A DNA stretch of 64,000 nucleotides from an uncultured bacterium (lineage in GTDB: Bacteria; Patescibacteriota; Minisyncoccia; Moranbacterales; UBA2206): contig CAIKZD010000009.1 in NCBI GenBank assembly GCA_903831805.1, forward strand, positions 217,939 through 281,938, written 5' to 3'. Positions 39,829 to 60,187 of the stretch are shown here, piece after piece. Position 1 is the first letter of the stretch. Every line of letters begins with the position of its first letter. A model generated the notes under the pieces. That model was not told the DNA's origin. It was given only the letters and a program-made list of their open reading frames with translations, and searched no databases. Position numbers and translations under genes: made by a program.

Positions 39829-39833
39829 AGATA

Positions 39834-40196
39834 TTATTTGCCTTGCAAAAACTTCCCCACCTCCGGCGAGAAATATTTCTCGCCTTTAACCATTTTGTAT
39901 TGATGATAGTCTTTGCTCATGTGTGAGCGATGCACTTCCGCAAAAATATCTCCGATCTTGTCTTGCAAACCATGTTCCAAGATCGTGCCATACACGCCGT
40001 ATAAAATATCACACAATTCTTTGGCAATGTTTTCCAGGTCATTATTTTGTACACCTTTAGCATATTCTCGCACCTCTTCTTCCATCAAACGATAGCGCAA
40101 ATCTGACCGGTCTTTCGGAATCAAAGCTGGCCTTTCCAAGATGGGCGCTTGGAATTTTTGGTGGAATTTTTTGACTAAGTCGAGTTGTTTTTGCAT
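39834..40196 (-). CDS. MazG-like NTP pyrophosphohydrolase family protein
   Basis: 120-aa all-alpha protein with an EExxE acidic motif (LMEEEVREYAKG). Confidence 0.4.
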   Translation of the reverse strand: MQKQLDLVKKFHQKFQAPILERPALIPKDRSDLRYRLMEEEVREYAKGVQNNDLENIAKELCDILYGVYGTILEHGLQDKIGDIFAEVHRSHMSKDYHQYKMVKGEKYFSPEVGKFLQGK

Positions 40197-40419
40197 GTAT
40201 TTAAAATAATCATTTATTCAAGATACTGTCTATGTATTCTGCTTTTGTTTGAGTTGATAAGTAGAACCTGACATTAAACTGTTTTATAGTGTTACTTGGA
40301 TTAATTTTATCATAGCTTGCGGCTCCCACTAAGGTTGCTTTCTGAGAAAAATCTCCACTTTTAATGGAATTGCGGAACAAAAAATTTAGGAGAGAAAATT
40401 TTGTTTTCCTTATCGTAAT

Positions 40420-41253
40420 TTATTTTGGTGATTCCAATTTTTTCGCGCCATTACTAGTTAAAAGCGATTTCATTTGAATAATCGCAGTATTATTTAATTT
40501 TAAAATTCGGTCTTGTTGGGTCATTCCATCACGAATTAGCAGTGCGTTGATACTCTCGATATTAGATAAAACCACCAACTGTTCAATTGTGGCATAGTCT
40601 CGAATGTTTCCTTTTAGCTTTGGATTTTTGTCCCGCCATATTTTGGCGGTCATTCCAAATAATGCCATGTTGAGCAAGTCTGCTTCATTGGCATATTTCA
40701 TAATTGCTTGATCCTTCGTTAATTCGTGTGGGATTAGATTATCCTTGATGGCATCAGTATGAATTTTGTAATTGATTTTTGCCAGCGTTCTTTGAAGATT
40801 CCATTCTAATTTTTGCCTGTTATTTTCATCCTCCTTTAATCTCTGAAATTCTTTTATAAGGTAAAATTTGAATTCCGCCGAAATCCACGAGGCAAATTCA
40901 AAAGCAATGTCTTTGTGGGCGAAAGTGCCGCTATTATAGCGCCCTCTCGTGGCAAAAATTCCAATAGCGCCCGTTTTATTGACCCATTGTTGGACTGACA
41001 ATGCAAATCCATTGGCGCCGCTTTGATTTTTAAAGTCACTGAATTCAGTTACTTTAAAACTGGAGTTGTTCATCTTCTCCCATATTCCCATGAATTCAAT
41101 AGCAAAACGAGTGCTCATCCAATGAGATATAACCAGGCCAGCTTCTGAGTTTTTATGTTTAGCTATATCGGTCAAAGAAATATAATCTTCGCTCCTCTGT
41201 TTGAAGACTGTAATATCCATGCCCTCTACATTTATTTTTTGATTCTTTGTCAT
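40420..41253 (-). CDS. KilA-N domain protein (phage-associated)
   Basis: The N-terminal 120 aa resemble the KilA-N/APSES fold (..GTFAHKDIAFEFASWISAEFKFYLIKEF..). Confidence 0.55.
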   Translation of the reverse strand: MTKNQKINVEGMDITVFKQRSEDYISLTDIAKHKNSEAGLVISHWMSTRFAIEFMGIWEKMNNSSFKVTEFSDFKNQSGANGFALSVQQWVNKTGAIGIFATRGRYNSGTFAHKDIAFEFASWISAEFKFYLIKEFQRLKEDENNRQKLEWNLQRTLAKINYKIHTDAIKDNLIPHELTKDQAIMKYANEADLLNMALFGMTAKIWRDKNPKLKGNIRDYATIEQLVVLSNIESINALLIRDGMTQQDRILKLNNTAIIQMKSLLTSNGAKKLESPK

Positions 41254-41262
41254 AAGGTAATT

Positions 41263-41286
41263 ATGGCGAATTCGCCGTAATTAAAA
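41263..41286. promoter_or_regulatory. 24-bp near-perfect palindrome (aattatggcgaattcgccgtaatt) in the KilA-N 5' leader; operator-like
   Basis: 22 of 24 positions are symmetric, lying 10 bp upstream of the KilA-N start codon. Confidence 0.35.
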
Positions 41287-41296
41287 AATTTACTTT

Positions 41297-41399
41297 GTCT
41301 AACGTTTCGGCATATCTGATGTTTGCCGTAGCGTAGCGGAGGCAAATATGGGTGGAGGCTCGCCGGAGGCGAACCGCAACCAGATATGCCGTGTTATGT
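41297..41399. repeat. F3 attC-like element copy a (103 bp)
   Basis: Ends GTCTAAC...GTTATGT on the plus strand (ACATAAC...GTTAGAC in gene sense). Inner inverted boxes ggcatatctg / cagatatgcc. Variable centre. Confidence 0.55.
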
Positions 41400-41475
41400 G
41401 ATGTGCATGTTTTACTTTAATCCCGATGGCAATCGGGATTGCTCTAAAAAAGAATTTTAATTTTGTTTTTTTGTT

Positions 41476-41520
41476 TTGGATTTTGGGCAGAGGGGTTAGG
41501 GGTGAATGCCCAAAATCCAA
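41476..41520. repeat. F1 hairpin element copy a
   Basis: ttggattttgggca-gaggggttaggggtgaa-tgcccaaaatccaa. The stem covaries with copies b and c. Confidence 0.6.
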
Positions 41521-41594
41521 AACTCCTTATTCTGTTTGAGGGAGGGGCAAGAGGGGAATTAAAGGGGTGAATTGCCCCGACCGAAAAAATTCAA

Positions 41595-42095
41595 TTAAAC
41601 TATCAATAAGACAAATAATAAAACTACTAAAACAAACAGGCATTTTGTACTGTTTTTAACATTATTCATTTTTTGATCAGCAATTATCGAGTTTGTATAT
41701 ATTTGCTCTGATATTTGCTTTTTTGCATCTTCTTCTGTTAATTTTTCCATTTCATTAAAATAATCAATCGGTTTTAACTTGGCGACATTTCCAAAGTAAA
41801 AAAGTGATTTATTTGTATTTGTATTTTTCAAACGAGGGAAAACGGAGCTGATTAAAAAGAATATTCCTAAAATAAATAGACCAATAGTTATTATAATTAA
41901 AATAGTATACAGACAAAGACCCCAGTTCTCAAAGTTTGAAATTGAGGAAATCACAATTCCTTTAAATGAAACAGTGCCTAAAAAAATTCCTGAATAATAA
42001 GCAGACAAAAACGCACTTTTTTTATCAGCAGACTGAATCCAGTCGCTAACTCTATTTAATTCATTTTGTAAAAAAGATAATTCTAGGTTTTTCAT
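41595..42095 (-). CDS. small 3-TM membrane protein, candidate effector paired with the cyclase
   Basis: 166 aa with a soluble N-terminal 30 aa, two adjacent TM helices, a roughly 60-aa charged loop and a C-terminal TM. A 3-bp gap separates it from the cyclase gene. Confidence 0.5.
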   Translation of the reverse strand: MKNLELSFLQNELNRVSDWIQSADKKSAFLSAYYSGIFLGTVSFKGIVISSISNFENWGLCLYTILIIITIGLFILGIFFLISSVFPRLKNTNTNKSLFYFGNVAKLKPIDYFNEMEKLTEEDAKKQISEQIYTNSIIADQKMNNVKNSTKCLFVLVVLLFVLLIV

Positions 42096-42098
42096 AGT

Positions 42099-42911
42099 TT
42101 AATTTAGTTTATCTATATAATTATCAGCACAGTGCACACACCAACCAACTTGGGTGTAATAAAATTTGTCTCCAAGCGTATCATCTGAAAAATCAGTAAC
42201 TTCTATAAAAACAGGATTTCTTTGTTCTAAAATGTCGGTATCGCCATTATGGCAGTTATATAATCCGAATTTCGGTTGCGCAACAAAATCTTTGTAGACT
42301 TCCTCAGATATTATTATTGGCGATTTGGCCCCATTAAATTTTTCAGGGGCGTCTTGGAATTGCTTGGATAATTTTGCAGCATTATTAACAAGTCTTCCTG
42401 CCCATACCTCATTATAGTCACCTCTCTTGCCGATCTTTTTGACTAAAATTTTGTCTTTATGGATGCCAATTTTACAACTAAGATTACCGCCTTCATCATC
42501 TTGAAATTTTGTTTTAATCTTTTCTTCAAAAATTTTTCTAAAAGTGATTGATGCGTAAAATGCTTTATACGAAGCATGCTCGCCTTCGTAGATAGCAAAT
42601 GCGCCATCTCCTTTTATATCTACATAGTCAGCACAGAAAGATTCATGATTAAAAACATCAACTAGCGTTTGAGTAAAGTAGTCATAGATCTTTGCCATTG
42701 TGACCGGATGTTTTTTGAATGAGATTTTTGACGATTTATCTAAGTCAACAAAAAGACAAACAAATTTATTATCACCACCAACCCAAGTAGGTTTTTCTAA
42801 GTAAGCATCTTCTTTGATGCTTGAAATTGATTCAATTTCAGCAATTTTAAAATCATCAAAGCGTTTTTCTGCCTTTTCCTTCAATTCTTCTATAAAGTCA
42901 TCAATTTGCAT
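42099..42911 (-). CDS. class III nucleotidyl cyclase homolog (adenylate/guanylate-cyclase fold; Pycsar/cNMP-cyclase-like)
   Basis: Metal-binding motifs CLFVDLDKSS (F.D..GFT-like) and VDIKGDGAFAIYEG (iGDa-like), plus VWAGRLVNNAAKLSK matching the conserved VWGd.VN.AaR transition-state region. Confidence 0.65.
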   Translation of the reverse strand: MQIDDFIEELKEKAEKRFDDFKIAEIESISSIKEDAYLEKPTWVGGDNKFVCLFVDLDKSSKISFKKHPVTMAKIYDYFTQTLVDVFNHESFCADYVDIKGDGAFAIYEGEHASYKAFYASITFRKIFEEKIKTKFQDDEGGNLSCKIGIHKDKILVKKIGKRGDYNEVWAGRLVNNAAKLSKQFQDAPEKFNGAKSPIIISEEVYKDFVAQPKFGLYNCHNGDTDILEQRNPVFIEVTDFSDDTLGDKFYYTQVGWCVHCADNYIDKLN

Positions 42912-42927
42912 ATTGTTATTATAAATA

Positions 42928-43584
42928 TTATAAATTATCCGTTACTCCAAAAAAATTCTTAATTATCGGATACTCTTGTTTTAAAAAGTATCTTCCCGAC
43001 TCGTTGTCTTTGATGAGAAAAAATTGTTTTTTTATACATTCCTCGTCTTCTTCCAAGCAGGCAATGCAAACGATAAAATCAATATGCGGATATTCTATGC
43101 TGACGGCAGTATTTTCTTTCCAGCTTTCTAAGTCTTTGTCATAAGTCCAGCCGAAACGGTTTAAAATTGTCTTTTTCTCAATAGCAGTGTTGTAGCAAAA
43201 CAATCCGCATAGTGGCTTGATGCCAGGGTCAATGGCTTTTATCCTTTCAAAATTCTTGTTCGTCTTTTTTATGTCTGGTCCGGTTGCGTTGGATTTTACT
43301 TCCAAAACTAATTTGCAATGTCGTGGATCAATCATTACTTGGTCGCCCAATGGGGTCGTGGTTGCCGTGGTTTCGTGAAATATCAAATCACATTCTCCGC
43401 TCTGTATTCCGTTTTTGGCGACTATGCCTTTTTTGCCTCGCAACGATTCTTTTCTTTTTAATACCAAATCACGCAAAAAGTCTTCTCGGATTGTTCCTCT
43501 GGGCAAGTGTTGTTGCACAAATTCCGACACTCGATATTGAGCGCGGAGCAGGTCTTCATAGTATTGTGCAAATATCTCGTCCAT
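42928..43584 (-). CDS. hypothetical protein with PD-(D/E)xK-like motif
   Basis: GECDLIFHE ... LVLEVKSN spacing is consistent with a restriction-endonuclease-like core. The assignment is weak. Confidence 0.35.
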   Translation of the reverse strand: MDEIFAQYYEDLLRAQYRVSEFVQQHLPRGTIREDFLRDLVLKRKESLRGKKGIVAKNGIQSGECDLIFHETTATTTPLGDQVMIDPRHCKLVLEVKSNATGPDIKKTNKNFERIKAIDPGIKPLCGLFCYNTAIEKKTILNRFGWTYDKDLESWKENTAVSIEYPHIDFIVCIACLEEDEECIKKQFFLIKDNESGRYFLKQEYPIIKNFFGVTDNL

Positions 43585-43593
43585 ACATAAAAA

Positions 43594-44718
43594 TTACAAT
43601 TCACCCTTAAACGCTTTTTGCATCAAGGCTTGAAATTGGGTTTCGAGTTCGTTGGATTGAGAAAGCATTTTTTGTTTAATTAATTCGGTTTTTTCTTTCA
43701 ATCCGAGATAAATTTTTTGCTCATCAAGACTTGGTACTAATATTTTTATTTTTTTAATAATACCTACATTTACAATTCCCATCGTCCCGCCATGAGATAC
43801 ATCTTTTATTTGTTTCTGTACTGATTGGCTAGTTAATAATTCTTTCAAAAATAACGGCAGTATAATATTTTGATTTGGTGTTATTTTCATTAGACGAGGA
43901 TTAATAATGCCTGGTTCAAATTTTTCTGGCACAACACTAATTTTCCCAAATGTTCCTACTAAGCTTATTAAAATATCTCCTTGTTGTATTTTACAACTTT
44001 CTAAGGTTCGATATCTTTCTTCGTTAATATAATAATCTCCATAATTGAAGTCATCTTTAATAACCTGTTCTTGTCCATATATTTTATAACCTGATTTTAC
44101 ATAAAATTCCTTCTTCAAAGATGAGCCAAATGGACCTGCCTTGATTCCATTTTTTTCTTTAATGGCAACATCATTAATTATTTGTATATTATAATTTTTC
44201 GGATTCTTCACTGGATCCCCAAACATCTCCAAAAACACCGACTTCAAATAATCATCCAAAAGCCCGATGGCTTGTTTTCGTTTTTGGCGAAGCGCGTCCG
44301 CCTCATCAAGAATTTTTACAATGCGTTTTTGGTCTTCGAGCGGTGGAAGTGGGATTATTGGATCAGTTAAATTATTTATCTTTATGTATTTTATAACTCC
44401 GCCAATAGATAATTCTCTTAATTTTTCAACATACTTAAATAAAAACCAATAAAGATATCGGGTATCCAAAACTGATTCGTCTTTACTTTCGATTATATAG
44501 GTTCTTTGATATGCATCGAATTTACCTTCGTAATATTTTACATTTAAATCACCATTTCCAGCCACAAGCACGCACTTACAATCATAAGAATATGAGCTTA
44601 TTTTTAAGGGCTTTTTGGAACAAGTAAAAAAAGGATACTCGCCATCAGGCGAGCTCGCATTTGCATCAAGTTTGCCAGTCCTTATTTTTACAAAATTTCC
44701 AAGTTTATTTTTAATCAT
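43594..44718 (-). CDS. hsdS: Type I restriction-modification specificity subunit
   Basis: Two target-recognition domains separated by the conserved central region (LPPLEDQKRIVKILDEADALRQKRKQA) and a C-terminal conserved helix (LVPSLDEQKIYL). Confidence 0.85.
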   Translation of the reverse strand: MIKNKLGNFVKIRTGKLDANASSPDGEYPFFTCSKKPLKISSYSYDCKCVLVAGNGDLNVKYYEGKFDAYQRTYIIESKDESVLDTRYLYWFLFKYVEKLRELSIGGVIKYIKINNLTDPIIPLPPLEDQKRIVKILDEADALRQKRKQAIGLLDDYLKSVFLEMFGDPVKNPKNYNIQIINDVAIKEKNGIKAGPFGSSLKKEFYVKSGYKIYGQEQVIKDDFNYGDYYINEERYRTLESCKIQQGDILISLVGTFGKISVVPEKFEPGIINPRLMKITPNQNIILPLFLKELLTSQSVQKQIKDVSHGGTMGIVNVGIIKKIKILVPSLDEQKIYLGLKEKTELIKQKMLSQSNELETQFQALMQKAFKGEL

Positions 44719-44720
44719 AA

Positions 44721-46241
44721 TTACAAATTTTTCAAATCACTAAGTCCAGCAACGATTTCTTGCTCCAGCGATTCAATCTTTCCCAAAATCACTTTTGGAT
44801 CTTCGTAAACCATTTCATCGTAATCCGTTACTTTGTAGCGATTGATACTCAAATCAAAATCAGCTTTTTCTATATCACTTTTATTAACATAGAAAAATTT
44901 ACTATTGAGCTTGTTTTCGGTTTGGTCTTTTCTTGTTTTCCATTTCGCCACAATATCCGGCAAATCACCCCCGCCGTTGATCTTGCTTCGCTTGTCGTCC
45001 AATGTGTAGCCGTCGGATTGCATATCATAAAACCAAACCTTTTCAGTTTCGCCGCCTTTTACAAATATCAAAATCGCGGTGCTTACTCCAGCGTAGGGCT
45101 TGAATACTCCGCTCGGCATCGAAATAACGCCTTGCAGTTCACACTCATTGATAAGCATCTTGCGCGCTTGCTTGTGGGCATTGCTAGAACCGAACAGCAC
45201 GCCGTCTGGCACAATCACACCGGCTCGTCCTCCGATTTTGAGGGATTTTATAATGGTATTGATAAACAATAATTCCGTTTTTGTCGTAGCGAGTGAGAGC
45301 GATTCGTTGATGTCGCCCTTATCAATACTGCCTTTGAAAGGCGGATTCGCCATGATGCAGTCATAAAAATTATTCTCGTCGTATTTTTTGGAGAGCGTAT
45401 CTTTTTGTTCGATGTTTGGATTGGAGATGCCGTGCATCATCAAGTTCATGAGTCCAATACGCACCATGCTTTCGTCCATGTCATAGCCGTAGAAAGTTTT
45501 TTCTTTGAGATGCGTCCATTGTCGCTCGTCGGTGAGCTTGTCGCCCAGATCGCCACGCGTCAGTCCGTTTTCATCAGTTTTTCTGTGTTCTTTGCTGGTA
45601 TGTGCTGTGAGAATATGCTGATAGGCACCGAGCAAAAATCCGCCTGTACCACAAGCTGGATCACAAATAGTATCGCCCAATTTTGGATCTACGAGTTCAC
45701 AAATAAGTTGAATGATGTGGCGCGGTGTGCGGAATTGGCCGAGCTTGCCGGCGCTCGTGATTTCTGAGAGCAAATATTCGTAGAGATCTCCCTGGGTGTC
45801 TTGAAAACCTTGTCCGGCCGAATCTTGCTTGGCGATTTCTTCAAAAATATCATCAATAATATTCACCGCTTCCACCAAAAGCGACGGCTTGGAAATGATA
45901 AAAACCGCGTTGCCCATGTGTTTGGCAAAGGGACTTTCTTCTTTGCCGATAGTTTTCAGAAATGGAAAAACTTTAGTTTGAATATGTGTCAGCATTTCGC
46001 CACCTTCCATTTGTCTGAAATGGCTCCAGCGCAAATTTTCTTTGTCATTTCCAAAAAGTGACTTGTACGCTTCTCCGGTAAATTCGGCGTCTTGTCTTTT
46101 CTTAATATCCATCTCGTCCAAGCGCTTCATAAAAAGCAAATAGGAAATTTGCTCAATAGCCGTGAGCGGATTGGATATGCCACCGCTCCAAAATTTATCC
46201 CAGAGCCTGCCAATTGATGATTTGAGTGTTGGATTAAGCAT
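44721..46241 (-). CDS. hsdM: Type I R-M N6-adenine DNA methyltransferase
   Basis: HsdM N-domain, AdoMet motif (DPACGTGGFL) and catalytic NPPF. Confidence 0.9.
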   Translation of the reverse strand: MLNPTLKSSIGRLWDKFWSGGISNPLTAIEQISYLLFMKRLDEMDIKKRQDAEFTGEAYKSLFGNDKENLRWSHFRQMEGGEMLTHIQTKVFPFLKTIGKEESPFAKHMGNAVFIISKPSLLVEAVNIIDDIFEEIAKQDSAGQGFQDTQGDLYEYLLSEITSAGKLGQFRTPRHIIQLICELVDPKLGDTICDPACGTGGFLLGAYQHILTAHTSKEHRKTDENGLTRGDLGDKLTDERQWTHLKEKTFYGYDMDESMVRIGLMNLMMHGISNPNIEQKDTLSKKYDENNFYDCIMANPPFKGSIDKGDINESLSLATTKTELLFINTIIKSLKIGGRAGVIVPDGVLFGSSNAHKQARKMLINECELQGVISMPSGVFKPYAGVSTAILIFVKGGETEKVWFYDMQSDGYTLDDKRSKINGGGDLPDIVAKWKTRKDQTENKLNSKFFYVNKSDIEKADFDLSINRYKVTDYDEMVYEDPKVILGKIESLEQEIVAGLSDLKNL

Positions 46242-49065: not shown

Positions 49066-49082
49066 TGTTATTGTATTCGTTT

Positions 49083-49155
49083 TCCCCTTATAAATAAATC
49101 GTTTTCGTAGCGTAGCGGAGAAAACACCTTATACCCCTTTCTAAATAAATAAAAA
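49083..49155. repeat. F2 shared promoter/leader element copy a (immediately 5' of hsdR)
   Basis: ccccttataaataaatcgttttcgtagcgtagcggagaaaacaccttatacccct; near-identical copies lie 5' of the 429-aa gene and the GIY-YIG gene. Confidence 0.5.
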
Positions 49156-49217
49156 ACAAAATTCAAATTCTTTTTTTGAGCTGGGCGATAGCCCAAAAGT
49201 AAAACATGCATTTCACA

Positions 49218-49585
49218 TAACGTGCGCGGATAATCCGAAGTAGTCGGAGGGAAATTCATTTCCCGACGGCTATTTCGGATATCCGCTGATATCCGATGTG
49301 TCGCAAGCGAAGCGAAGCGGCACAGAGGGTATCGGCGGAGGTATCCGCGCACGATATTCAAAATGGAGCAAGCGTAGCGCGCGACATTTTGGATATCGTT
49401 TACGCATCATCTGAAGTTTTCATCCCGACTTTGCAGGATAAACTTTTGATTTCAAACAATGCTTTATTAAATTATCTCCGCCTAAACCTTCATCTAAACT
49501 AAAGGATGAAAATTTGGGCGGAGGGAAATTGACACTCCTTGAATCGCTTTGGTCAATTTCCTGTAGCCAGATATGCGTTGTTAGG
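49218..49585. repeat. degenerate F3-like copy (49218..49300) plus F3 attC-like copy b (49397..49585)
   Basis: Copy b ends ...cagatatgcgttGTTAGGC on the plus strand (GCCTAAC in gene sense) with the inner box cgcatcatctg. The upstream degenerate copy has gcggataatccg / cggatatccgc boxes. Confidence 0.45.
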
Positions 49586-49639
49586 CGATGAAACTAAAAA
49601 TTTCCTTTCCTAATAATAAAGAATTTTTGGCAATTTTAT

Positions 49640-50724: not shown

Positions 50725-50758
50725 AACTCCTTATTACAATTTTTCCGTAACATTTTAT

Positions 50759-52048: not shown

Positions 52049-52077
52049 GTTTATATTATCTCAAAATATTAATAAAT

Positions 52078-52185
52078 TCGTTTTCGTAGCCTTAGCGGAG
52101 AAAACACCTTTTTCCCCTCTATAAATAGATAAAAAAAACTTATTTTTCCTTATTATAAAAAGCGAATTTAAAAAAGAAAATAAAT
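52078..52185. repeat. F2 shared promoter/leader element copy b (extended homology to copy c)
   Basis: cgttttcgtagccttagcggagaaaacacc...ataaaaaaaacttatttttccttattataaaaagcgaatttaaaaaagaaaa. Confidence 0.5.
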
Positions 52186-52192
52186 TTATTTC

Positions 52193-52319
52193 GTCTAACG
52201 TTAGGCATATCCGAAGTTTTTCTGTAGCGTAGCGAAGGAAAAATTTGGGAGAGAAAATTTTGCTTTCCTTATTTTATTATAAAGTGCAAAATTTTTGAAC
52301 CGGATATGCCTTGTTATGT
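52193..52319. repeat. F3 attC-like element copy d (127 bp)
   Basis: GTCTAAC...GTTATGT on the plus strand (ACATAAC...GTTAGAC in gene sense). Inner boxes aggcatatccg / cggatatgcct. Confidence 0.55.
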
Positions 52320-52387
52320 GATGTAAAATTCTTTCTTTTTTCTTTTTTTAAATTTGCTTTATAAATGATAAATAAGTTTTTTTGTTT

Positions 52388-52431
52388 TTGATTTTGGGCA
52401 GAGGGGTAAGGGGTGAATGCCCAAAATCAAA
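52388..52431. repeat. F1 hairpin element copy c
   Basis: ttgattttgggca-gaggggtaaggggtgaa-tgcccaaaatcaa, followed by a second G-rich-loop hairpin at 52448..52500. Confidence 0.6.
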
Positions 52432-52471
52432 AACTCCTTATTCTTAAACAAAAAGGCAAAAAGGAAGGGGT

Positions 52472-53992
52472 TTAAGGGGAGGGAATTTTTGCCTTTTTGT
52501 TTTCTTTCACCAATTTACTCATTTTTATTTTTGGAGATATTCCTAACTCAAAACATTTTCTTGCCCACGATTCAATCTTTTGTTTTAAAATTATAGAATT
52601 AATTTCGGATATTTTTTTAGGTAAATTCTTATTTTGGATAACTAACCAAATGCAATAATTTTTAAAATCAATATCAATCTTTTTTGTGTTCGCTTTTTTG
52701 CCGATGAGTTCTAATGTATTGTTTGCTTGATCACAGACATAACCTAATTTTTGAGCAGTTCCAAATTTTACGGCATAAACAGTTTCGCCCTTTTTTGAAT
52801 CCCACGCCTCAACTAGCGTTCCAGCTTTAACCTTAATAATTGAAAAGTTTTTATCGGCATCAGAATATCCATGTTCTTTTAGACTTTTATTAAAATCACC
52901 TTCTATGCCAGTAATTTCAAGTAAGTCATTTTCAACTTCATCCAGATCAATGCTATCGATGTATTCGTTTAATTGATCCATATAGTCCTCATTAAATTTC
53001 ATCCACTTACCTTGCGTTAGAAGGACATTTTGATCATCAATAATATAATCTATCGATTCTTTTACAGTTTTAGAAAACGGCTTAGCATCTTCCTTGATTA
53101 TATGAACCCTTATACTGAGAATTTGCTCCTTGGGAATGGAATTCGTTGATATAAAAGTATTTAATCTATCGATTGTAAGTTCTTCGAATTCAGCCGATGT
53201 AAAACTGTCTAAGGAAAATTTATATTTTTCCTGTCCAGAGAAAATAAAATCAATTCCGATAAGCTCATGACTATTTGAAGTGAAATCTGTGCTATCTTTT
53301 GAGGCAATAATCTCTTCTGCTAATTTATTTTCATACCCAACTGTTATAGGGGATGTATCAAGAATGATTGTTCGCGGTAATTTAAATAATTCAGGAGATT
53401 CATAAACTTTAATTATTGATTCTAAAAATTCTGGCAATGCTTCTTTCTCAACTAGTGGACTTAGTAATGAAGAAGAACCAAATTTACCTGACTTGCCAAA
53501 ATTTTCTATAAAATCTTTAGAAATAGATGATTGTAAATAATCGATAGATTCACCACTCTCAATATCCAGTTGGCTATTTTTTGTATAACTTTTTATTTCT
53601 TTTTTCTTTTTTCCCGCGAATTTTTTTGACGATTTTTGTCTGATATCTTTTTGATTCGCAATTCTTTTGGCTATATGAATGCCAAAATCATGATCGCAAA
53701 ATTGTCGTAGATAAAAATGCGATTTCCCATAGCTTAATGCAAAACAATATTTTTCATTTTCCCAAATATAAGCGCAAAAGTAGATTCTATTTTCGGGCTT
53801 ATCTTCGTTGAAAAAATCTTTGTATGTTTCTGCCCACGGAATTTGAATCGGATCAATATCTTTGGAAAAATAAAAATCACCTTTCCAGCCTTTTTCTTCG
53901 CTCGAGTTAATATTTTTAAGTCCTAATGATTCAAATTTATCTTTTAAATCATTGACTTTGTCTTTTGGAATTTTAAAAATATTTAGCTTCAT
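52472..53992 (-). CDS. hypothetical 506-aa protein, last gene of the type IIS R-M operon (resembles the sporadically distributed TIGR04141-like family from memory; unverified)
   Basis: No catalytic motif recognised. Separated by a 6-bp gap from the REase candidate. Confidence 0.5.
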   Translation of the reverse strand: MKLNIFKIPKDKVNDLKDKFESLGLKNINSSEEKGWKGDFYFSKDIDPIQIPWAETYKDFFNEDKPENRIYFCAYIWENEKYCFALSYGKSHFYLRQFCDHDFGIHIAKRIANQKDIRQKSSKKFAGKKKKEIKSYTKNSQLDIESGESIDYLQSSISKDFIENFGKSGKFGSSSLLSPLVEKEALPEFLESIIKVYESPELFKLPRTIILDTSPITVGYENKLAEEIIASKDSTDFTSNSHELIGIDFIFSGQEKYKFSLDSFTSAEFEELTIDRLNTFISTNSIPKEQILSIRVHIIKEDAKPFSKTVKESIDYIIDDQNVLLTQGKWMKFNEDYMDQLNEYIDSIDLDEVENDLLEITGIEGDFNKSLKEHGYSDADKNFSIIKVKAGTLVEAWDSKKGETVYAVKFGTAQKLGYVCDQANNTLELIGKKANTKKIDIDFKNYCIWLVIQNKNLPKKISEINSIILKQKIESWARKCFELGISPKIKMSKLVKENKKAKIPSP

Positions 53993-53998
53993 GCTTAT

Positions 53999-55516
53999 TT
54001 ATGCGGTTACTTCATTTAAAGAGGTTTTCATCTCAAGGCTATTAACAAATTTATCAATATTTGAGATTCTCACTTCCAAACCATCTTTTTTGATAAAATC
54101 AAAGTAGCGTTCGGTATCAATAAAAGATTTTGGCGAGATAAACACGGAATATGATTTTGTGCCTTTTTTTACATATTCTTCAAGGTGTCGATGTATAGAA
54201 AACGACTCTCTGATATGCTGTTGCGTTCCAGTCAGTAAAGTTACTTCGATCAAAACTGTGTCTTTTTCTTCCAAACATTCAATGTCGGGGCTTCCGCCAG
54301 ACGCAAAACTTGTTGGCAAGCCTTCATCGTCGGATATGAAATTAGGTTTTACGATAACATCTGGTAATTTTTTGAGGATTGCCAATGAAGTTAAAAATTC
54401 CAATCGTAATGGTTGCTCAATGACTTTCAAAATATTATCGCTAGAAGATTTTTTCTGTGCCAAATTAAGAAGTTCGGTTTTAATTGAATCCCAAGCATAA
54501 TGATCAACCCATTTTTCCAATTCTGCCTTTGTGGTTTTCGCTGGTGCTCCAAATACGGTAAGCGTTGAGATTAAATCGTGGTCGACTTGTCCGATATACT
54601 CAAAAAATTCTTTTTCCGTTTCAAATTCTTTGTAGGAAATATAATTTTTTAAAATATAATCAACGGTTGTAGATTCTTTTGAGTTTATATCTATAAAACG
54701 ACCACCGCCACGCAAAGAAAGTAAGCCAGTTAAACGCATTTTTCGTATAAAATCGTCAGGATAATCACCAAGGATTGAATTATCATCTCTCTTTGTTTCG
54801 TTTAGCAATTCATAGCAAAGATCTAAAATTACTTCGTTGCTCGGTGTATAACCATGTTTTTTGCGTAATTTTTTAATTTCTCGATATAAACTTTCAGCGT
54901 TATCGTTTTGCCAACATAGCAACAATGGTATTTCCGATCTGGATATACCAGCACCCTTGTATGCTGGGTCATTATTCAAAAGTTTTATGGTTTGTATAAG
55001 CAAAATAAGCGGAACATTTTTATTTAAAACGCGACGAAATGGATTTTGGCGTTGATATTTTGCAAAAGCATTTGCAAAAACCATTAACTCATTTTCTGGC
55101 TTTTCTTTGTCCAATAACATCTTTCCGCTTTCGGAAAATTTTATTTCTTCATTTTGCCAATACCAAACAAAACCAAGTTCTTTGGCAATTTTAAACCAAG
55201 TATCAAATCTTGATGGCCATCCTTTTTCAAACCCTGCTTCTTTGTGGCTTTGAGGGTTGTCGGAAAATACTTTTTTGGTTTCAGTTTCGCTTAATTCAAT
55301 CTCATTTTTCCATTTATCTTTTACAGCCGAAGTTACTTTCATGGGTTGGTATAATCCTTTTTGAATTAAGGATTTGGCGACTTTATCAATAATTTCGTTT
55401 GTTAAAATTTCGCCGTCATATTCCGCAAGTACGGTCAAAAAATCCTTCAACCGTTCAGGATTCCTCATTGTTGTTGTAAATAGCAATGGTTTGTATTCAG
55501 ATTGTCGTTTAGTCAT
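53999..55516 (-). CDS. AlwI-family (type IIS, MlyI/PleI/N.BstNBI-like) restriction endonuclease candidate
   Basis: N-terminal LLFTTTMRNPERLKDF resembles the AlwI-family N-terminal motif. The C-terminal SPDIECLEEKDTVLIEVTLLTG resembles the family's PD..E..EVT catalytic region, as recalled for N.BstNBI. It lies adjacent to two Dam-class methyltransferases. Confidence 0.55.
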   Translation of the reverse strand: MTKRQSEYKPLLFTTTMRNPERLKDFLTVLAEYDGEILTNEIIDKVAKSLIQKGLYQPMKVTSAVKDKWKNEIELSETETKKVFSDNPQSHKEAGFEKGWPSRFDTWFKIAKELGFVWYWQNEEIKFSESGKMLLDKEKPENELMVFANAFAKYQRQNPFRRVLNKNVPLILLIQTIKLLNNDPAYKGAGISRSEIPLLLCWQNDNAESLYREIKKLRKKHGYTPSNEVILDLCYELLNETKRDDNSILGDYPDDFIRKMRLTGLLSLRGGGRFIDINSKESTTVDYILKNYISYKEFETEKEFFEYIGQVDHDLISTLTVFGAPAKTTKAELEKWVDHYAWDSIKTELLNLAQKKSSSDNILKVIEQPLRLEFLTSLAILKKLPDVIVKPNFISDDEGLPTSFASGGSPDIECLEEKDTVLIEVTLLTGTQQHIRESFSIHRHLEEYVKKGTKSYSVFISPKSFIDTERYFDFIKKDGLEVRISNIDKFVNSLEMKTSLNEVTA

Positions 55517-55520
55517 AATT

Positions 55521-56426
55521 TTAATAGTTAGTAATCAGAACTTCTTTAATTATCTTTTTGCCGTTGTTATGATAATTAATGTAGTTGCTTTCAATTTTGT
55601 GTACCTTGTATTTTTTCATCCATTCTAATAAAAAATCATTTTTGCTCCCGTTATAGTGAGTAACATTTGATAAAGCGAATTTAACACCTTTTTTGTCTAA
55701 GACATCAATCATTTTCAATAAATCAATTTCTAATTCCTTGTTCCATAATTTATTATATTCGCTTGCGGATATTAAGTATGGTGGATCTAAATATACAAAA
55801 TCATTTTTTGAATATTTTTTGTCCGCAAAAAACTTTTTGAAATCTTTTGAAGTTATAGATATTTTTTTATCATGTACAAAATCAAAGTAGCCGTTCAAGG
55901 CGTTAATCACATTTTTATTAAAATCAACATTGCCAACAGGTAAATTAAATTTTCCTCCGCCATTGAATCTTAACATTCTATTAAATCCATAAATAAGTAG
56001 GATGTATAAAATCAAGGGGTCGTTTTTTTGATAATTATTTACGCTCATTCTTAATTTATCGTATCCTTCCTTATTAAATCTTGCGTAATAGGTTTTTTTA
56101 AACTCCTTTTTTAACGAATCAGGGACAATATCTTTTTTATATGAGTGCGAAAATTTATATTTGTGGATTATTTTTTCGGTATCCTTGAAAAACTTTTCTG
56201 GATTTTTTGAACTGGCGATTAAAAGTTTTTGAATATTTATCAGATGTTTGTCTATATCATTGAGAAAATATTTTTTTGCCTCAATATTCAGAAATACCGT
56301 GCCACCGCCGACAAAAGGTTCATAAAAATTATTTATTTCTTTGGGAAATAAATTTATGAGTTGTTTCATCAACTTATATTTATCGCCGACATAAAACAGG
56401 GGCGATCTTTTTATTTTATTGCTCAT
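55521..56426 (-). CDS. D12-class (Dam-like) N6-adenine DNA methyltransferase
   Basis: YEPFVGGGTVFLN AdoMet motif and catalytic DPPY (VYLDPPYLIS). Confidence 0.8.
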   Translation of the reverse strand: MSNKIKRSPLFYVGDKYKLMKQLINLFPKEINNFYEPFVGGGTVFLNIEAKKYFLNDIDKHLINIQKLLIASSKNPEKFFKDTEKIIHKYKFSHSYKKDIVPDSLKKEFKKTYYARFNKEGYDKLRMSVNNYQKNDPLILYILLIYGFNRMLRFNGGGKFNLPVGNVDFNKNVINALNGYFDFVHDKKISITSKDFKKFFADKKYSKNDFVYLDPPYLISASEYNKLWNKELEIDLLKMIDVLDKKGVKFALSNVTHYNGSKNDFLLEWMKKYKVHKIESNYINYHNNGKKIIKEVLITNY

Positions 56427-58231
56427 ATTTTTGCTTTCGTTACAAACAGGTATTCCTTGTGATTATTGAAATTGGTATTGCCTGCATTAAAATGTCTATA
56501 ATTTTTTTCAAAAACTTTGGTTGGTCCTTTTTTCTGCAAAATCTGTTCAATCTCTTGGAGTGTAATTTTGTTTTTTGATGAATTACTCTTTGAATCGTAA
56601 GTGTTATTGTATGAAACGACCAAAAATTTAGCGTCAAGGTCTCTCACGAGTTCCGCAAATTTATCTTTGGCGTTGGCTCGGCAGTAGTCGCTCATATTTT
56701 CCGGGTCTGGTTTTAACGCAACCCCATGAAGCTTTGGCTTGTCCCACTTAGTTAATGTTTCAAGTACATGGTAAAATCTGCTGTATTGTCTTGAGTTGTA
56801 AGGTGGGTCAATGTAAACCACATCAGCATTAATTTTTTTTGCCAGATTGTTTGTGTCTTCCTGAAAAATAGTTATTTCTTGCGTATCTATCGGATCAATC
56901 GGTTTCATGAAAAAACTATCATTTACAAATTCTTTTTTAAAATATGCGTCAAAATGTCCGACTGTGTTGGCAATTTTATCGGCGGTATAAAGCAACGAGG
57001 CGATTAACATAAAATATTCTCTCTCAGTTAAGTTTTTCCTGTTTTCCTCTATATTTTCACGAATAAAGCCGATGATTTTCGCTGAATTTTTACTAAAAAA
57101 TTTACCGCCAAAATTTTTAGAAAAATAATTTTCCTCTAAATCATCGCCATAAATATTGTTGTAACTTTTAATAATGTTATCGATTTTGACTTTATTCCAT
57201 GCCTCGTTTCCAAAAAAAGCCTGATATATCGCGTAATTTGAATGCAGAAAGTCGTTTAATAAAACTTTTTCAAAGTGTTTGGTTGCAACAGCGGATACAA
57301 CACCCGTTCCTGCAAAAATATCCGCAAAGGAATTGCCACTGCATTCTTTATTTATTATAGAAAAAATCCATTCAATCAGCTTGTGTTTGTTACCAATATA
57401 TCTGCGATTGTGTAATTGAAGATGGTTTTCTTTCACTTGTGGGATATAAAAATAATTTTCTTGGATTTTTTCAGCGGTTATTTCATAGGATGGTCGTTCA
57501 GTTTCAAACATAGCAAAAAGCGTGCCTTGTATTCCGTCTGCAACATAATCAACGCTTGCTTTTTCCTTATTTAATTTTTCGTAGAAACTGTAATGATTAT
57601 TTTCAGAGATGATAATAAAATCAATAACTGGTATTCCCATTATTTCACCAGCTTGTACGATTTTTTCAATAATTTGATTATCCTTTTCGCTTGGTAAAGA
57701 ATCGCCCGAAGGGTGATTATGAACTAAAATTACACTGGCGGCGTTTAATTCAGTCGCGGGATAAAAAATTTCTCTCGGATGTAGTAGCGCTTTATCTAAA
57801 AGACCGACACTAACAACTTCTTTTTTCAACAAAACATTTCGTGCGTTTAAATAAAGACAAACTAAATGTTCTTTTTTCTTGTCTCTTAAATCGTAAGTAA
57901 GAGATAAAATATCTTGAGAATTTTTTATAACAATCTCGTTGGTTTTGTTTTCGTCGTAAAATCTTTTTACTAATGAAATTGCGGAAGCAATTTGCAATGC
58001 TTTTGCTTGTCCGATTCCTGAAATCTCTAAAAGATCATCAACGGTTATATTCAAAAAGTTTTTACCGAATTTTTTGATAATATTCTCAGAAAGCTGTCTG
58101 ACATTTTTTCCCTTGATTCCGCTACCCAAAAGAATTGCCAAAAGATCACTCTTTGAAAGTGCATCAGCTCCTTTTTTCAGAAACCTTTCTCTCGGACGAT
58201 CAATTTTTGGTATATCCTTAATTTTTGGCAT
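56423..58231 (-). CDS. RadC-like JAB/MPN domain fused to a D12-class N6-adenine DNA methyltransferase
   Basis: N-terminal HhH plus RadC signature (LLHPREIFYPATELNAASVILVHNHPSGD). C-terminal Dam motifs including DPPY (VVYIDPPYNSRQY). Confidence 0.75.
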   Translation of the reverse strand: MPKIKDIPKIDRPRERFLKKGADALSKSDLLAILLGSGIKGKNVRQLSENIIKKFGKNFLNITVDDLLEISGIGQAKALQIASAISLVKRFYDENKTNEIVIKNSQDILSLTYDLRDKKKEHLVCLYLNARNVLLKKEVVSVGLLDKALLHPREIFYPATELNAASVILVHNHPSGDSLPSEKDNQIIEKIVQAGEIMGIPVIDFIIISENNHYSFYEKLNKEKASVDYVADGIQGTLFAMFETERPSYEITAEKIQENYFYIPQVKENHLQLHNRRYIGNKHKLIEWIFSIINKECSGNSFADIFAGTGVVSAVATKHFEKVLLNDFLHSNYAIYQAFFGNEAWNKVKIDNIIKSYNNIYGDDLEENYFSKNFGGKFFSKNSAKIIGFIRENIEENRKNLTEREYFMLIASLLYTADKIANTVGHFDAYFKKEFVNDSFFMKPIDPIDTQEITIFQEDTNNLAKKINADVVYIDPPYNSRQYSRFYHVLETLTKWDKPKLHGVALKPDPENMSDYCRANAKDKFAELVRDLDAKFLVVSYNNTYDSKSNSSKNKITLQEIEQILQKKGPTKVFEKNYRHFNAGNTNFNNHKEYLFVTKAKI

Positions 58232-58233
58232 AA

Positions 58234-59082
58234 TTATTTTTTGTAAATTTCTTCAAGAGTTTTTCCATTTTTGGTTTTCCATTTTTTCCATCCGCTTGTT
58301 GAGTTTCCCAAAATAATATCTGAAGCTGCGCTTGGGCTATTAAAAACATAATCCTTGGTGAATATATAAAGATCACTATCTTTCTTTTCCAAATATCCAT
58401 TTAAAATTAACTTCTCGATGTTCTTTGAGTTTCTTTCGGCTACCGCACTAGAAAATTGAGTTGTGGCTGTAGAATCTTTATATACAACAAAACCTTCGTT
58501 GGTCATACGGCCACTAGCTAAAGCCATTTTGCCACCACATGTAAACAATGGATCGGATGAGTTTGGTTGCTCTTTTGAGGTAATCTCTTGCAAAATAGGA
58601 TAACCGACCGCAGTAAGAAGTAATTTTAAGTTACTTAAAAATTCTTCCATTTCAGCAATATCGGCTTCGGACAATGAGGGCAGTACTGATTTGGCGCCAT
58701 TCTCTAAATTAAATCTTTTTACTAATGTAGCAATTTCTATACACCTACTTTCAAGATATTTTACATGTGCTTTTGTGAGGTTATTGTCTTTACTTACAAA
58801 AGCTATTGCAGTAAACCAAAAGTCTTTTGAGCTATCATGTGTAATCAATCTGTTCCATAAATTTTCAGCTTCACCTATGTATGCAGTAGACAGTAGGGCT
58901 TCTTCATCTTCTTTTCCAATTAAAAAATAAACTGCAGGCTTGTTGCAATCGGGGCGTTGTTTCGTGTCCTTGAGTTTATTACGTGGAATAACTATTGCTT
59001 GACCCACCCAGTTGCTTAACTCAACAGTTTTTAGACCATTTGGTTCACCATCGACGAGAAAAATTTTAATTGTCTTTGCCAT
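58234..59082 (-). CDS. GIY-YIG nuclease with DUF4357-like C-terminal domain
   Basis: VYFLIG ... YIGEAENLWNRLITH are GIY-YIG motifs. First gene of the operon. Confidence 0.6.
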   Translation of the reverse strand: MAKTIKIFLVDGEPNGLKTVELSNWVGQAIVIPRNKLKDTKQRPDCNKPAVYFLIGKEDEEALLSTAYIGEAENLWNRLITHDSSKDFWFTAIAFVSKDNNLTKAHVKYLESRCIEIATLVKRFNLENGAKSVLPSLSEADIAEMEEFLSNLKLLLTAVGYPILQEITSKEQPNSSDPLFTCGGKMALASGRMTNEGFVVYKDSTATTQFSSAVAERNSKNIEKLILNGYLEKKDSDLYIFTKDYVFNSPSAASDIILGNSTSGWKKWKTKNGKTLEEIYKK

Positions 59083-59119
59083 ATTTTATCTAGGTCAAGT
59101 AATTGAATTATATCAGTTT

Positions 59120-59245
59120 TCCCCTTATAAATAAATCGTTTTCGTAGCGGAGCGGAGAAAACACCTTATACCCCTATATAAATAGATAAAAAAACTTATT
59201 TTTCCTTATTATTAAAAAAGCAAATTTAAAAAAAGAAAAAAGAAA
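59120..59245. repeat. F2 shared promoter/leader element copy c
   Basis: ccccttataaataaatcgttttcgtagcggagcggagaaaacaccttatacccct...ataaaaaaacttatttttccttattattaaaaaagcaaatttaaaaaaag. Confidence 0.5.
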
Positions 59246-59282
59246 GAATTTTATTTCACATAACTCTTTATATACGAACTGA

Positions 59283-59311
59283 TTGATTTTTTGTTGTTAA
59301 TTGGCTATAAT
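59283..59311 (+). promoter_or_regulatory. near-consensus sigma70 promoter TTGATT-N17-TATAAT for the recombinase gene
   Basis: Hexamers and spacing read directly from the sequence, 30 nt upstream of the ATG at 59342. Confidence 0.45.
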
Positions 59312-59341
59312 CCAGATATAAACTTTAAATCATAATGTGTT

Positions 59342-60178
59342 ATGAATGAAAGTTATTATCCAAGTCAAGATCCAATTTTAAAATTGAAGCAGGAAATGAA
59401 ATTGCGGAAGTTTAGTCCGAAAACCGTCAAGTCCTATTTATATTATATCACGGATTTACTGAAGCAATCAAACAAAAATCCCAAAACTGTCAATACGGAC
59501 GATATTCGGGGATATTTAGAATATCTAGCTGACAAAAATTTCGCTGCTTCAACCCTAAATGGTGCCTATAGTGCTTTCAAACTCTACTTTGAAAAAATCC
59601 TTTATCGTCATTTCTTTGCCAATATTCCACGCGCCAAATGCCCCAAAAAATTGCCGGAAACCCTCACCAAAGAAGAGGTGAAAAAAATTCTAGGCACGAT
59701 TCAGAACGTAAAACACAAGCTGTTACTAGGATTGATGTATTCATCAGGACTGCGAGTTTCGGAAGTTGTGAATTGCAAGGTCAAAGATTTGGATTTTGAA
59801 AGCAAATTGATGCGGGTGCGCCAAGCCAAGGGAGCTAAGGACAGAATGACTATCTTATCAGAAAAAATGATTGTTGTTTTGCAAAGATATTTAAAGAATA
59901 AAAAATCTGACGACTATGTTTTCGAAAGCGACCGTGGTGGCAAACTGACTGAAAGAACGGCTCAGAAAATTTTTTGCGACGCCTTGCAAAAATCTGGCAT
60001 CAAAAAACCGGCTACTTGCCACAGTTTGCGCCATTCTTTTGCCACTCACCTCTTGGAATCCGGCACCAGCATCCGCTATATCCAAGAACTTCTTGGCCAT
60101 GCACGCCTCGAGACCACGCAAATTTACACCAAAGTGGCCAACACGAACCTGCAAACTATCAAAAGTCCATTAGATTAG
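59342..60178 (+). CDS. tyrosine site-specific recombinase (Xer/IntI-like)
   Basis: R..H.LRHSFATHLLESG...IQELLGHARLETTQIYTKV catalytic R-H-R-Y region. The KVKDLDF..RVRQAKGAKDR patch and the KSPLD tail resemble integron integrases, but the IntI-specific extra domain is absent. 278 aa. Confidence 0.85.
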   Translation: MNESYYPSQDPILKLKQEMKLRKFSPKTVKSYLYYITDLLKQSNKNPKTVNTDDIRGYLEYLADKNFAASTLNGAYSAFKLYFEKILYRHFFANIPRAKCPKKLPETLTKEEVKKILGTIQNVKHKLLLGLMYSSGLRVSEVVNCKVKDLDFESKLMRVRQAKGAKDRMTILSEKMIVVLQRYLKNKKSDDYVFESDRGGKLTERTAQKIFCDALQKSGIKKPATCHSLRHSFATHLLESGTSIRYIQELLGHARLETTQIYTKVANTNLQTIKSPLD

Positions 60179-60187
60179 AAAATTATT

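Follow-up and report, generated by a model that had tools for sequence, protein, structure and literature searches.

The block between prfA and prmC

We analyzed a 64-kb stretch of the genome of an uncultured bacterium of the order Moranbacterales (hereafter the window), in which the genes for release factor 1 (prfA; RF1) and its methyltransferase (prmC) are held apart by a 20.4-kb block of genes. Names given to close homologues of its proteins point to a Moranbacteria-like member of the Parcubacteria. The block is an array of six gene cassettes, all transcribed away from a tyrosine recombinase gene at its prmC end and separated by imperfect palindromes. The genes, sites and promoters that frame the array are given below. 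Sites are called attC-like (att for short) or attI-like after those of integrons, P and T denote a leader and a hairpin module, and L-numbers denote other loci fetched for comparison.

38761–39828 (alternative start 38731), + strand: prfA (PCRF and RF-1 domains), the distal flank of the array
40374–40418, + strand: degenerate remnant of an att centre (repeat family D4; nhmmer match to the centre of the 52193–52319 site, E=8e-4), the distal end of the recognizable array
41297–41399, + strand: attC-like site GTCTAAC ... GTTATGT, 103 nt (fold z=−3.9/−3.5; member of alignment A1)
41457–41531, − strand: T module, a hairpin with a 17-bp stem (repeat family D1), with copies 93–96% identical in other genomes
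49070–49156, − strand: P module, a leader before the first gene of a cassette, conserved in other arrays
49215–49359, + strand: variant attC-like site ACATAAC ... GATATTC (inverted repeat I24; −38.6 kcal/mol, z=−6.7), followed by a 45-nt empty mini-cassette
49391–49586, + strand: attC-like site GGATATC ... GTTAGGC, 196 nt, with homologues 81–91% identical in L016, L017, L024 and L049
50462–50612, + strand: attC-like site GCCTAAC ... GTTAGAC, 151 nt (fold z=−5.9/−4.5)
52193–52319, + strand: attC-like site GTCTAAC ... GTTATGT, 127 nt; a copy 93.6% identical, together with a T arm, is found in L060 (recombinase 51% identical)
59254–59280, + strand: attI-like site with a dif-like core, ATTTCACATAA-CTCTTT-ATATACGAACT; the first cassette ends at AAC 59262–59264
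59283–59311, + strand: candidate recombinase promoter TTGATT-17-TATAAT, conserved in relatives
59342–60178, + strand: XerA-family tyrosine recombinase, 278 aa (NF040815, 241.7 bits; cutoff 220)
59440–59471, − strand: promoter candidate TTGATT-18-TGATATAAT, inside the recombinase coding sequence and facing the cassettes, resembling the Pc promoter of integrons
60188–61138, + strand: prmC, the proximal flank (TIGR03534, 219.7 bits; cutoff 199)

The GC content is 0.30–0.39 within the block and 0.44–0.48 in its flanks. A scan of metagenomes for RF1 shows the order prfA-prmC-P212-DUF192, with 9–130 bp between prfA and prmC, in at least 15 relatives (PrfA 63–74% identical), and P212 and DUF192 also follow prmC in the window. 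The original prediction for this locus, made from the letters alone, had described a defense or mobile island that breaks a conserved prfA-prmC adjacency, and the foreign composition of the block and the empty-site alleles of the relatives agree with that description. The open reading frame (ORF) map likewise places the end of prfA at 39828, the start of prmC at 60188 and the recombinase stop codon (60176–60178) 9 bp before the prmC ATG, exactly as had been read. Every gene named in between is present according to the ORF map, translations and profile searches, and Pfam and PADLOC matches bear out the dominance of defense genes.

The recombinase gene adjoins prmC in L011, L037, L042, L045, L080, L095 and L105 as well, and the two remain linked even where the recombinase is only 52–58% identical. 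In other lineages, it lies upstream of prfA (L012) or beside scpAB (L091–L093). The proposal that prmC now relies on the recombinase promoter holds as far as the adjacency goes: since the arrangement is conserved across loci, co-transcription of the two genes is plausible.

Recombination sites and the recombinase

Every gene module has shared repeats at its borders, and 40374–59341 contains all matches of att, T and P in the window. Read on the sense strand of the recombinase, an att site is an imperfect palindrome of 103–196 nt with the order ATTTC-NNNN-AAC, 3–4 nt, an 11-nt arm, a branched centre, the complementary 11-nt arm, 1 nt and GTT-NNNN-GATG. Its left half is built as the attI-like site is, so that each att site consists of two inverted dif-like cores able to anneal. 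The annealed cores can form a hairpin with a bulged central region, and as single-stranded DNA (ssDNA) the sites fold with z-scores of −3.5 to −6.7 relative to shuffled controls. A search of Rfam, which holds no attC family, returned no family match for the att repeats.

We aligned the arms of 38 att sites from 20 loci, collected by sequence-only nhmmer, with the centres replaced by a linker (alignment A1). The 11-bp stem is 95.7% paired over these sites, with nine pairs changed on both sides. None of 500 shuffles reached the observed covariation, and sliding the partner by 1–3 columns left 27–43% of positions paired. The AAC and GTT triplets are invariant, and the bulge is asymmetric (3–4 nt on one side, 1 nt on the other) in 38/38 sites. 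The attC sites of integrons are likewise imperfect palindromes (R'', L'', L' and R') with a poorly conserved sequence, a conserved structure, extrahelical bases and a variable terminal structure, and they are recognized by that structure (PMC8946536). The locus thus carries palindromes of the attC type, with a folded structure that is kept, a bulge and a branched centre. A generic scan for TAAC-stem-loop-stem-GTTA had proved too noisy, with 45 matches in shuffled loci, and the sequence-only nhmmer search replaced it.

The four bases outside the AAC/GTT triplets follow another pairing rule. Within one att site, only 55% of the cells at these outer box positions are paired, whereas across a cassette the bases pair in 4/4 complete window cassettes. 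In other loci, all four bases pair in 6/19 neighboring site pairs, compared with 5% of random pairs and 1/38 within sites. Each gene module is moreover flanked by its own inverted repeats of 50–103 nt, 75–90% complementary, which start at the NNNN box. A switch of partner across the cassette is the classical signature of an integron cassette (PMC8946536). Since pairing partners switch exactly at AAC/GTT, the crossover would be fixed at this core, as far as the comparison of sites can tell.

The attI-like site reads ATTTCACATAAC|TCTTTATATACGAAC and, as double-stranded DNA, forms an 11-6-11 Xer core. Its left arm equals that of Pyrococcus abyssi dif at 8/11 positions, and its right arm starts with the same TTATAT (dif from PMC2958812). 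The motif is recognizable in most of 45 compared loci, in 23 by the search pattern and in most others by eye, and lies 77 nt upstream of the recombinase start codon in the window and 77–123 nt upstream in other loci. Homology of the window to other loci starts at 59250–59268, i.e., at the first cassette boundary. As in integrons, an attI-type site next to the recombinase gene is the place where cassettes insert, as the single unit by which L092 differs from L091 lies exactly there, and the recombinase would be the enzyme that catalyzes the insertion. We also considered the site as a replication-terminus dif and saw no sign of this at the scale of the window: GC skew is negative over its whole length, and the switch that a terminus would place at 59–60 kb is not seen. 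The site is dif-like nonetheless.

Two promoter candidates were kept as leads from a scan of the block for sigma-70 promoters and terminators, which as a whole found no enrichment (58 found, 70 expected). One is that of the recombinase. The other faces the cassettes. Its TATAAT hexamer is the same in 18/18 loci, even at two synonymous positions, and 17/18 keep the TGn extension (TGnTATAAT); this conservation suggests that the element at 59440–59471 may be the analogue of the integron Pc promoter. The P and T modules probably act in expression. T, which follows the last gene of a cassette, is a perfect hairpin of 17 bp, of which an equivalent copy folds with z=−4.4, and P shows no significant fold as a structured RNA (z=−1.0/−0.5). 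L011 has a further copy of this hairpin (9183–9224), ~8 kb downstream of its recombinase gene.

The recombinase scores above the curated cutoff of the XerA model and retains all catalytic residues of the R-K-H-R-H-Y set: R138, the lysine in AKGAKDR, H227, R230, H253 and Y262. Its closest solved structure is XerA of P. abyssi (4A8E, E=1e-47). Integron integrases are defined by an additional, IntI-specific domain around patch III (PMC9668308; PMC8138268), and this domain is missing from the recombinase. In the alignment to VchIntIA (2A3V), its residues 183–201 span IntIA 180–241, so that ~43 residues of the IntI-specific insertion are absent, and its scores stay below the integron-integrase cutoffs (TIGR02249, 219.6 bits in two stretches, cutoff 265; PRK15417, 154, cutoff 435). 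We therefore rejected membership of the block among true integrons at the integrase. The 'Cand' Xer-like recombinases of candidate phyla are a subgroup presumed to be housekeeping (PMC8138268).

Among relatives, the recombinase is 87–93% identical in amino acids (78–82% in nucleotides) where RF1 is 70% identical (71–73% in nucleotides) and PrmC 53–65%, which implies unusually strong purifying selection. It is a resident, strongly conserved XerA-family gene and not a typical island integrase.

Occurrence, turnover and cargo of the arrays

With the four att sites of the window as queries, and again by sequence-only nhmmer, we searched 80 loci in which a relative of the recombinase is encoded. 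Of 90 raw matches, 89 lie on the recombinase sense strand. Merged, they give 59 unique att sites in 25 loci; sequence upstream of the recombinase (225 kb) holds 58 of them and sequence downstream (451 kb) holds one. Prfa-anchored loci without the recombinase (957,558 bp) gave no match to the same sites, which are present in all four further recombinase-bearing loci fetched later (L091, L092, L094 and L105). No arrays were seen in the loci fetched from DPANN archaea. A cassette array driven by a Xer-type enzyme appears to be general to a large clade of the candidate phyla radiation (CPR) and the system to be widespread in CPR.

Arrays differ between close relatives. Three contigs from different samples share an identical recombinase protein (P0007, 90% identical to that of the window), an identical attI and the same downstream core genes, and differ in their upstream cassettes. 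In L091, a cassette ending in ...CGGACAAC adjoins attI. L092 has the same cassette end, followed by an att site and an extra lipoprotein cassette ending in ...CGCACAAC, and then the same attI. L091 and L092 are a natural before/after pair in which one unit has been inserted at attI and AAC marks the junction. The order in L105 is prfA, 4.6 kb of array with other cargo and three att sites, recombinase and prmC, and L094 carries yet other restriction-modification (R-M) cassettes at the same position; the recombinase is 89% identical in both. Boundary elements of the window are 91–96% identical to those of genomes whose recombinase is only 51–58% identical, and the ORFs that they enclose differ. 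In L080, for instance, the ends of a cassette are 96% and 93% identical to the ends of cassette 2 of the window and a different ORF lies inside.

Assembly is affected beside the recombinase gene. Among 61 contigs of CPR metagenome-assembled genomes (MAGs; L011–L080), the contig end lies at most 500 bp upstream of the recombinase in 25 and downstream of it in two (p=6e-6). Such breaks fit a repeat-rich region that varies between strains.

The cargo of the window is listed here.

39834–40196, − strand: MazG/PRA-PH-like gene (PF01503, 3.4e-16), the most distal cargo; GC 0.38–0.39
40420–41253, − strand: cassette 6, KilA-N protein (PADLOC candidate PDC-S22)
41595–49065, − strand: cassette 5, a seven-gene operon of type I R-M and Pycsar (Pfam, PADLOC)
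41595–42095, in cassette 5: PycTM effector (PDLC02364, 7.7e-31; PF18967, 1.5e-15)
42099–42911, in cassette 5: PycC cyclase (PDLC02369, 2.4e-62)
43594–49065, in cassette 5: hsdR, hsdM and hsdS (Pfam ResIII/EcoEI_R_C/HSDR_N, N6_Mtase/HsdM_N and Methylase_S)
in the cassette 5 operon: gene for a DUF6602 PD-(D/E)xK nuclease
49640–50353, − strand: cassette 3, lipoprotein (signal peptide and Cys)
50759–52048, − strand: cassette 2, 429-aa protein without a family match
52472–59082, − strand: cassette 1, DUF4357/PDC-S14 protein, RadC-D12 methyltransferase, D12 methyltransferase, AlwI endonuclease and DUF6119 protein
52472–53992, in cassette 1: DUF6119
53999–55516, in cassette 1: AlwI endonuclease (RE_AlwI, 1.3e-42)
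58234–59082, in cassette 1: DUF4357/PDC-S14 protein

Cassette 1 is flanked by 103-nt inverted repeats (52313–52415 and 59162–59264), cassette 2 by 50-nt inverted repeats that are 90% complementary, cassette 3 by repeats 83% complementary (49580–49637 and 50411–50468) and cassette 5 by cassette-specific ones (41393–41471 and 49151–49221). Transcription runs away from the recombinase in all 16 genes of the window's cassette array and in 58 of the 66 ORFs of 12 other arrays. Cassettes hold 0–7 genes in 0.18–7.9 kb and have a conserved leader module. The integron norm is single promoterless genes served by a common Pc, to which the extended −10 element that faces the array may correspond. The smallest unit of the window is the empty mini-cassette, 45 nt between two att sites (49353–49397; GATATTCAAAATG...CATTTTGGATATC), which has its own 13-nt terminal inverted repeats and the variant boxes GAT/ATC in place of GTT/AAC.

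Three descriptions of the original prediction gain in detail. What it had called a cyclase module is indeed a cyclase gene and belongs to a Pycsar system, PycC beside PycTM with 3 bp between them, which together with the DUF6602 nuclease gene sits in the operon of a type I R-M system with hsdR, hsdM and hsdS. Its type IIS R-M system has the AlwI endonuclease and two MethyltransfD12 proteins, one of which is fused to a RadC domain, and its GIY-YIG nuclease is better described as a DUF4357/PDC-S14 protein, GIY-YIG-like. GC content is 0.25–0.36 in the Pycsar part of cassette 5 and 0.45–0.49 in hsdM; on this account, cassette 5 is a composite defense cassette of mixed origin. The fusion in cassette 1, RadC (JAB) with a D12 adenine methyltransferase (56423–58231), has a counterpart in L060 (6848–8512), where RadC is fused to a C5 cytosine methyltransferase beside HpaII and Vsr genes. 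Fusions of RadC to a methyltransferase are thus recurrent in R-M cassettes.

In the 12 other arrays, the defense cargo comprises HpaII R-M with Vsr, GmrSD, OLD, Schlafen, HigB and type IIG R-M, and the remainder includes NUDIX, HD, GNAT, isochorismatase, methyltransferases and others. This is the mix of accessory and defense genes typical of chromosomal integrons. The array of L034, with a recombinase just 58% identical, holds a copy of the KilA-N gene of cassette 6 that is 82% identical in nucleotides. We considered the MazG-like gene as a conserved neighbor of prfA and as a cassette present elsewhere, and dropped both, as no homologue lies beside prfA or elsewhere in the ~180 fetched loci. 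Because the gene is absent from the prfA-prmC loci of relatives, the variable region starts right after prfA.

One complete att site was found on a viral contig (L177; IMG/VR UViG_3300001336_000172), at 10687–10795 beside the terminase gene. The contig is phage-like, with terminase, portal/connector, major head and tail fiber proteins (PHROGs), and phages of CPR hosts may dock at the same platform. Scans of viral contigs with three site patterns and the T hairpin gave this one genuine site; 16 other contigs matched the search pattern only, and L187 has a weak partial nhmmer match besides its pattern match.

Several features lie outside the array. At 60594–60670, prmC contains an imperfect palindrome of ~77 bp as an in-frame insert (peptide CHPRVGGDPVAHQKVSTLDSRLHGND), which is shared by PrmC of L095, is not present in L080, L094 and L105, and looks like a miniature inverted-repeat transposable element (MITE) tolerated in a coding loop. 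The region downstream of prmC (61365–61900) is very AT-rich (GC 0.15–0.25), with 12/36-nt tandem-like repeats at 61365–61447 and an inverted repeat at 61709–61840. Genes of the Bro-N/KilA-N type occupy the prfA|prmC junction of L104 (11154–12729), which has no recombinase, and the gap between recombinase and prmC in L094 (10829–11659). Since neither insert has att-like sites, a second, different kind of small insertion targets the prfA/prmC neighborhood. The window's own genome has a second variable spot between rmuC and a Mur ligase gene (L001/L007, 10559–13675), with Bro-N, AbiEii and DUF6922. The sole Rfam family at gathering threshold in the window is class A RNase P RNA (20662–21015, − strand, 135.6 bits).

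A proposed gene-capture platform and its relation to known systems

Altogether, we think it likely that the region at ~40.4–60.2 kb is a chromosomal gene-capture platform, integron-like and run by the Xer-type recombinase. Its stable part consists of the recombinase gene, its promoter, the dif-like core of the attI-like site and probably the outward promoter inside the gene. The recombinase would be the catalyst and folded ssDNA the substrate, with resolution by replication. In ssDNA, the att palindrome would fold into a hairpin and so restore a Xer core site whose central region is bulged. Strand exchange of this hairpin with attI, carried out by the recombinase at the conserved AAC/GTT, would insert a circular cassette beside the gene of the recombinase itself and push older cassettes toward prfA, and recombination between two attC-like sites would excise cassettes. 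Defense systems such as the type I R-M with Pycsar, the AlwI R-M module and the KilA-N protein would be stockpiled and exchanged within the population. As a speculation, the 50–103-nt complementarity of cassette ends, which would pair only in the excised circle, might let free cassettes recombine more readily than integrated ones.

Several observations weigh against this platform or complicate it. The recombinase lacks the insertion that integron integrases use to bind the extrahelical bases of attC, so hairpin recognition would have to work differently here. The covariation supports base pairing as such, and a cruciform would produce it as well as a single-strand hairpin. The cassettes are atypical for integrons in size (up to 7.9 kb and seven genes), in their leader and hairpin modules and in the 50–100-nt complementarity of their ends. 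One cassette (X) of L091 and L092 is a mosaic, which means that homologous recombination between shared arms also shapes the arrays. We found no intact cassette with identical boundaries in two arrays, and the homology between the KilA-N genes of the window and L034 ends at the ORF. Finally, the MazG-like gene and the adjacent 40197–40373 have no att site that bounds them.

We weighed three other explanations. The original prediction took the ~20 kb for a unit that its own integrase had inserted whole between prfA and prmC, and it expected a short direct repeat as att sites near 39830 and 60180. The low GC over the entire block, the tyrosine recombinase at one end and the adjacency of prfA and prmC in relatives are what such an island would show. 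Nevertheless, no direct repeat joins the two borders above chance (the best is a 12-mer, E=0.21, within coding sequence), there is no tRNA in the window, and neither attL/attR flanks nor an integrase that travels with the island were found. The recombinase is conserved independently of the cargo, beyond RF1, and is linked to prmC even in distant relatives. The interior of the block is itself split by five recombination sites into independently bounded cassettes, and relatives and co-specific strains, even samples with an identical recombinase, differ by single cassettes and not by presence or absence of the whole. We see hardly any room left for a unit island. A defense island whose repeats are regulatory or structural elements, i.e., terminators, promoters or elements like repetitive extragenic palindromes (REP) and MITEs, and whose content shifts by homologous recombination next to a housekeeping dimer resolvase, would account for the conserved P and T modules that flank the cargo and probably act in expression, for the mosaic cassettes, which point to homologous exchange, and for the presumed role of 'Cand' recombinases (PMC8138268). 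It would not account for 58/59 sites lying immediately upstream of a recombinase in 25 loci with fixed polarity and none elsewhere in ~1.4 Mb, for box bases that change partner exactly at AAC/GTT, for a matching half-site that adjoins the recombinase promoter in most of 45 loci, or for a precise insertion at the attI-like site as the difference between L091 and L092. We judge this explanation very improbable.

The last alternative keeps the recombinase and dispenses with folding: like-oriented dif-like cores of neighboring regions would recombine as double-stranded DNA and leave the palindrome as a by-product, as proposed for the pdif modules of plasmids. It gains from each att half-site being an 11-6/7-11 Xer core that resembles the dif of XerA and from a recombinase that is XerA-like and lacks the IntI domain, and it predicts the same products, units of a module plus a spacer, as are seen in L091 and L092. 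Yet the inner arm changes freely and stays complementary (nine covarying pairs), as expected for pairing and not for two independent binding sites, and the spacers of the two half-sites are unequal (3–4 and 1 nt) in all 38 sites, so that the halves are not interchangeable as double-stranded partners. Nor would purely double-stranded exchange have an obvious use for a bulge whose strand is strictly set with respect to the recombinase. We consider such a mechanism unlikely, and favor capture of folded cassettes by the platform.

Beyond this locus, we regard a wider proposal as evenly balanced between holding and failing: that CPR bacteria (Moranbacteria, Falkowbacteria and other Parcubacteria) hold a second, unrecognized type of integron, with a XerA-like enzyme of housekeeping type devoid of the IntI domain, a dif-like site beside the gene of this enzyme and folded palindromes of inverted dif-like cores. 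Such a type would be an intermediate, ancestral or reinvented, of Xer/dif, integrative mobile elements exploiting Xer (IMEX) of the CTX type and integrons, the main exchange route for anti-phage defense in these bacteria and possibly a docking site for phages. The current view makes integrons dependent on the IntI-specific domain and leaves open their descent from Xer-like recombinases. If the proposal is true, structure-specific cassette capture needs no IntI domain, and a Xer-run cassette platform with dif-like sites makes the origin of integrons directly testable. The arrays would offer a concrete mechanism for the high density and turnover of defense systems reported in tiny CPR genomes (PMC12259885) and explain the systematic assembly gap of MAGs beside the recombinase gene, where the gap in assembly and binning hides them in public genomes. 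Because it keys on the IntI domain and classical attC models, a standard integron finder would presumably overlook arrays of this kind. None are reported in integron surveys or in a CPR-rich defensome study in which IntegronFinder was run. We found no description of the system in the literature on integrons and cassette arrays of CPR/Patescibacteria and on links between XerA and integrons; our coverage of it is incomplete, and a prior description is possible. A small enzyme (278 aa) with simple sites could also become a recombination tool.

By the accepted definition the block is not an integron, yet it is integron-like in every other respect that gave a clear answer. As in sedentary chromosomal integrons, the recombinase diverges from a co-oriented cassette array, the insertion site lies by the recombinase promoter, and cassettes end in palindromes with invariant AAC...GTT, an asymmetric bulge and a variable terminal structure, in which structure is kept over sequence. 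A cassette starts with bases complementary to its own inner box, sites resemble one another more within a lineage, accessory and defense genes form the cargo, and a candidate outward promoter lies within the recombinase gene (integron definitions from PMC8946536 and PMC9668308). Unlike integrons, the array has a recombinase that scores as XerA and lacks the IntI domain, long sites (103–196 nt), complementarity that extends 50–100 nt beyond the boxes, its own leader and hairpin modules, up to seven genes per cassette, an attI that looks like dif and a host in the Patescibacteria (CPR).

A second relative is the CTX phage, which the Xer recombinases of the host integrate through ssDNA folded from two dif-like attP sites that lie inverted at a distance of 90 nt (PMC5357621). 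The array shares with such IMEX an enzyme of the Xer family, two inverted dif-like sites, whose pairing in ssDNA makes the substrate in CTX and would do so here, a double-stranded dif-like target and the accumulation of elements there in tandem. It differs in that the elements are non-replicative gene cassettes and not phages (one phage contig, L177, has a site), in that one recombinase takes the place of XerC and XerD, and in a target that lies beside the recombinase gene and not at a GC-skew switch seen in the window.

With archaeal XerA/dif, the array has in common that the best family model and the best solved homologue of its recombinase are of the XerA type and that the arms of attI resemble P. 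abyssi dif, whereas XerA acts on a single 28-bp site without cassettes. The pdif modules of Acinetobacter plasmids, finally, have 28-bp sites, two recombinases and a plasmid location. Like the cassettes described here, they are discrete gene modules that lie between Xer-type sites of inverse orientation and are exchanged among replicons; unlike them, they come without an adjacent recombinase gene, a fixed polarity of the array and long covarying hairpins.

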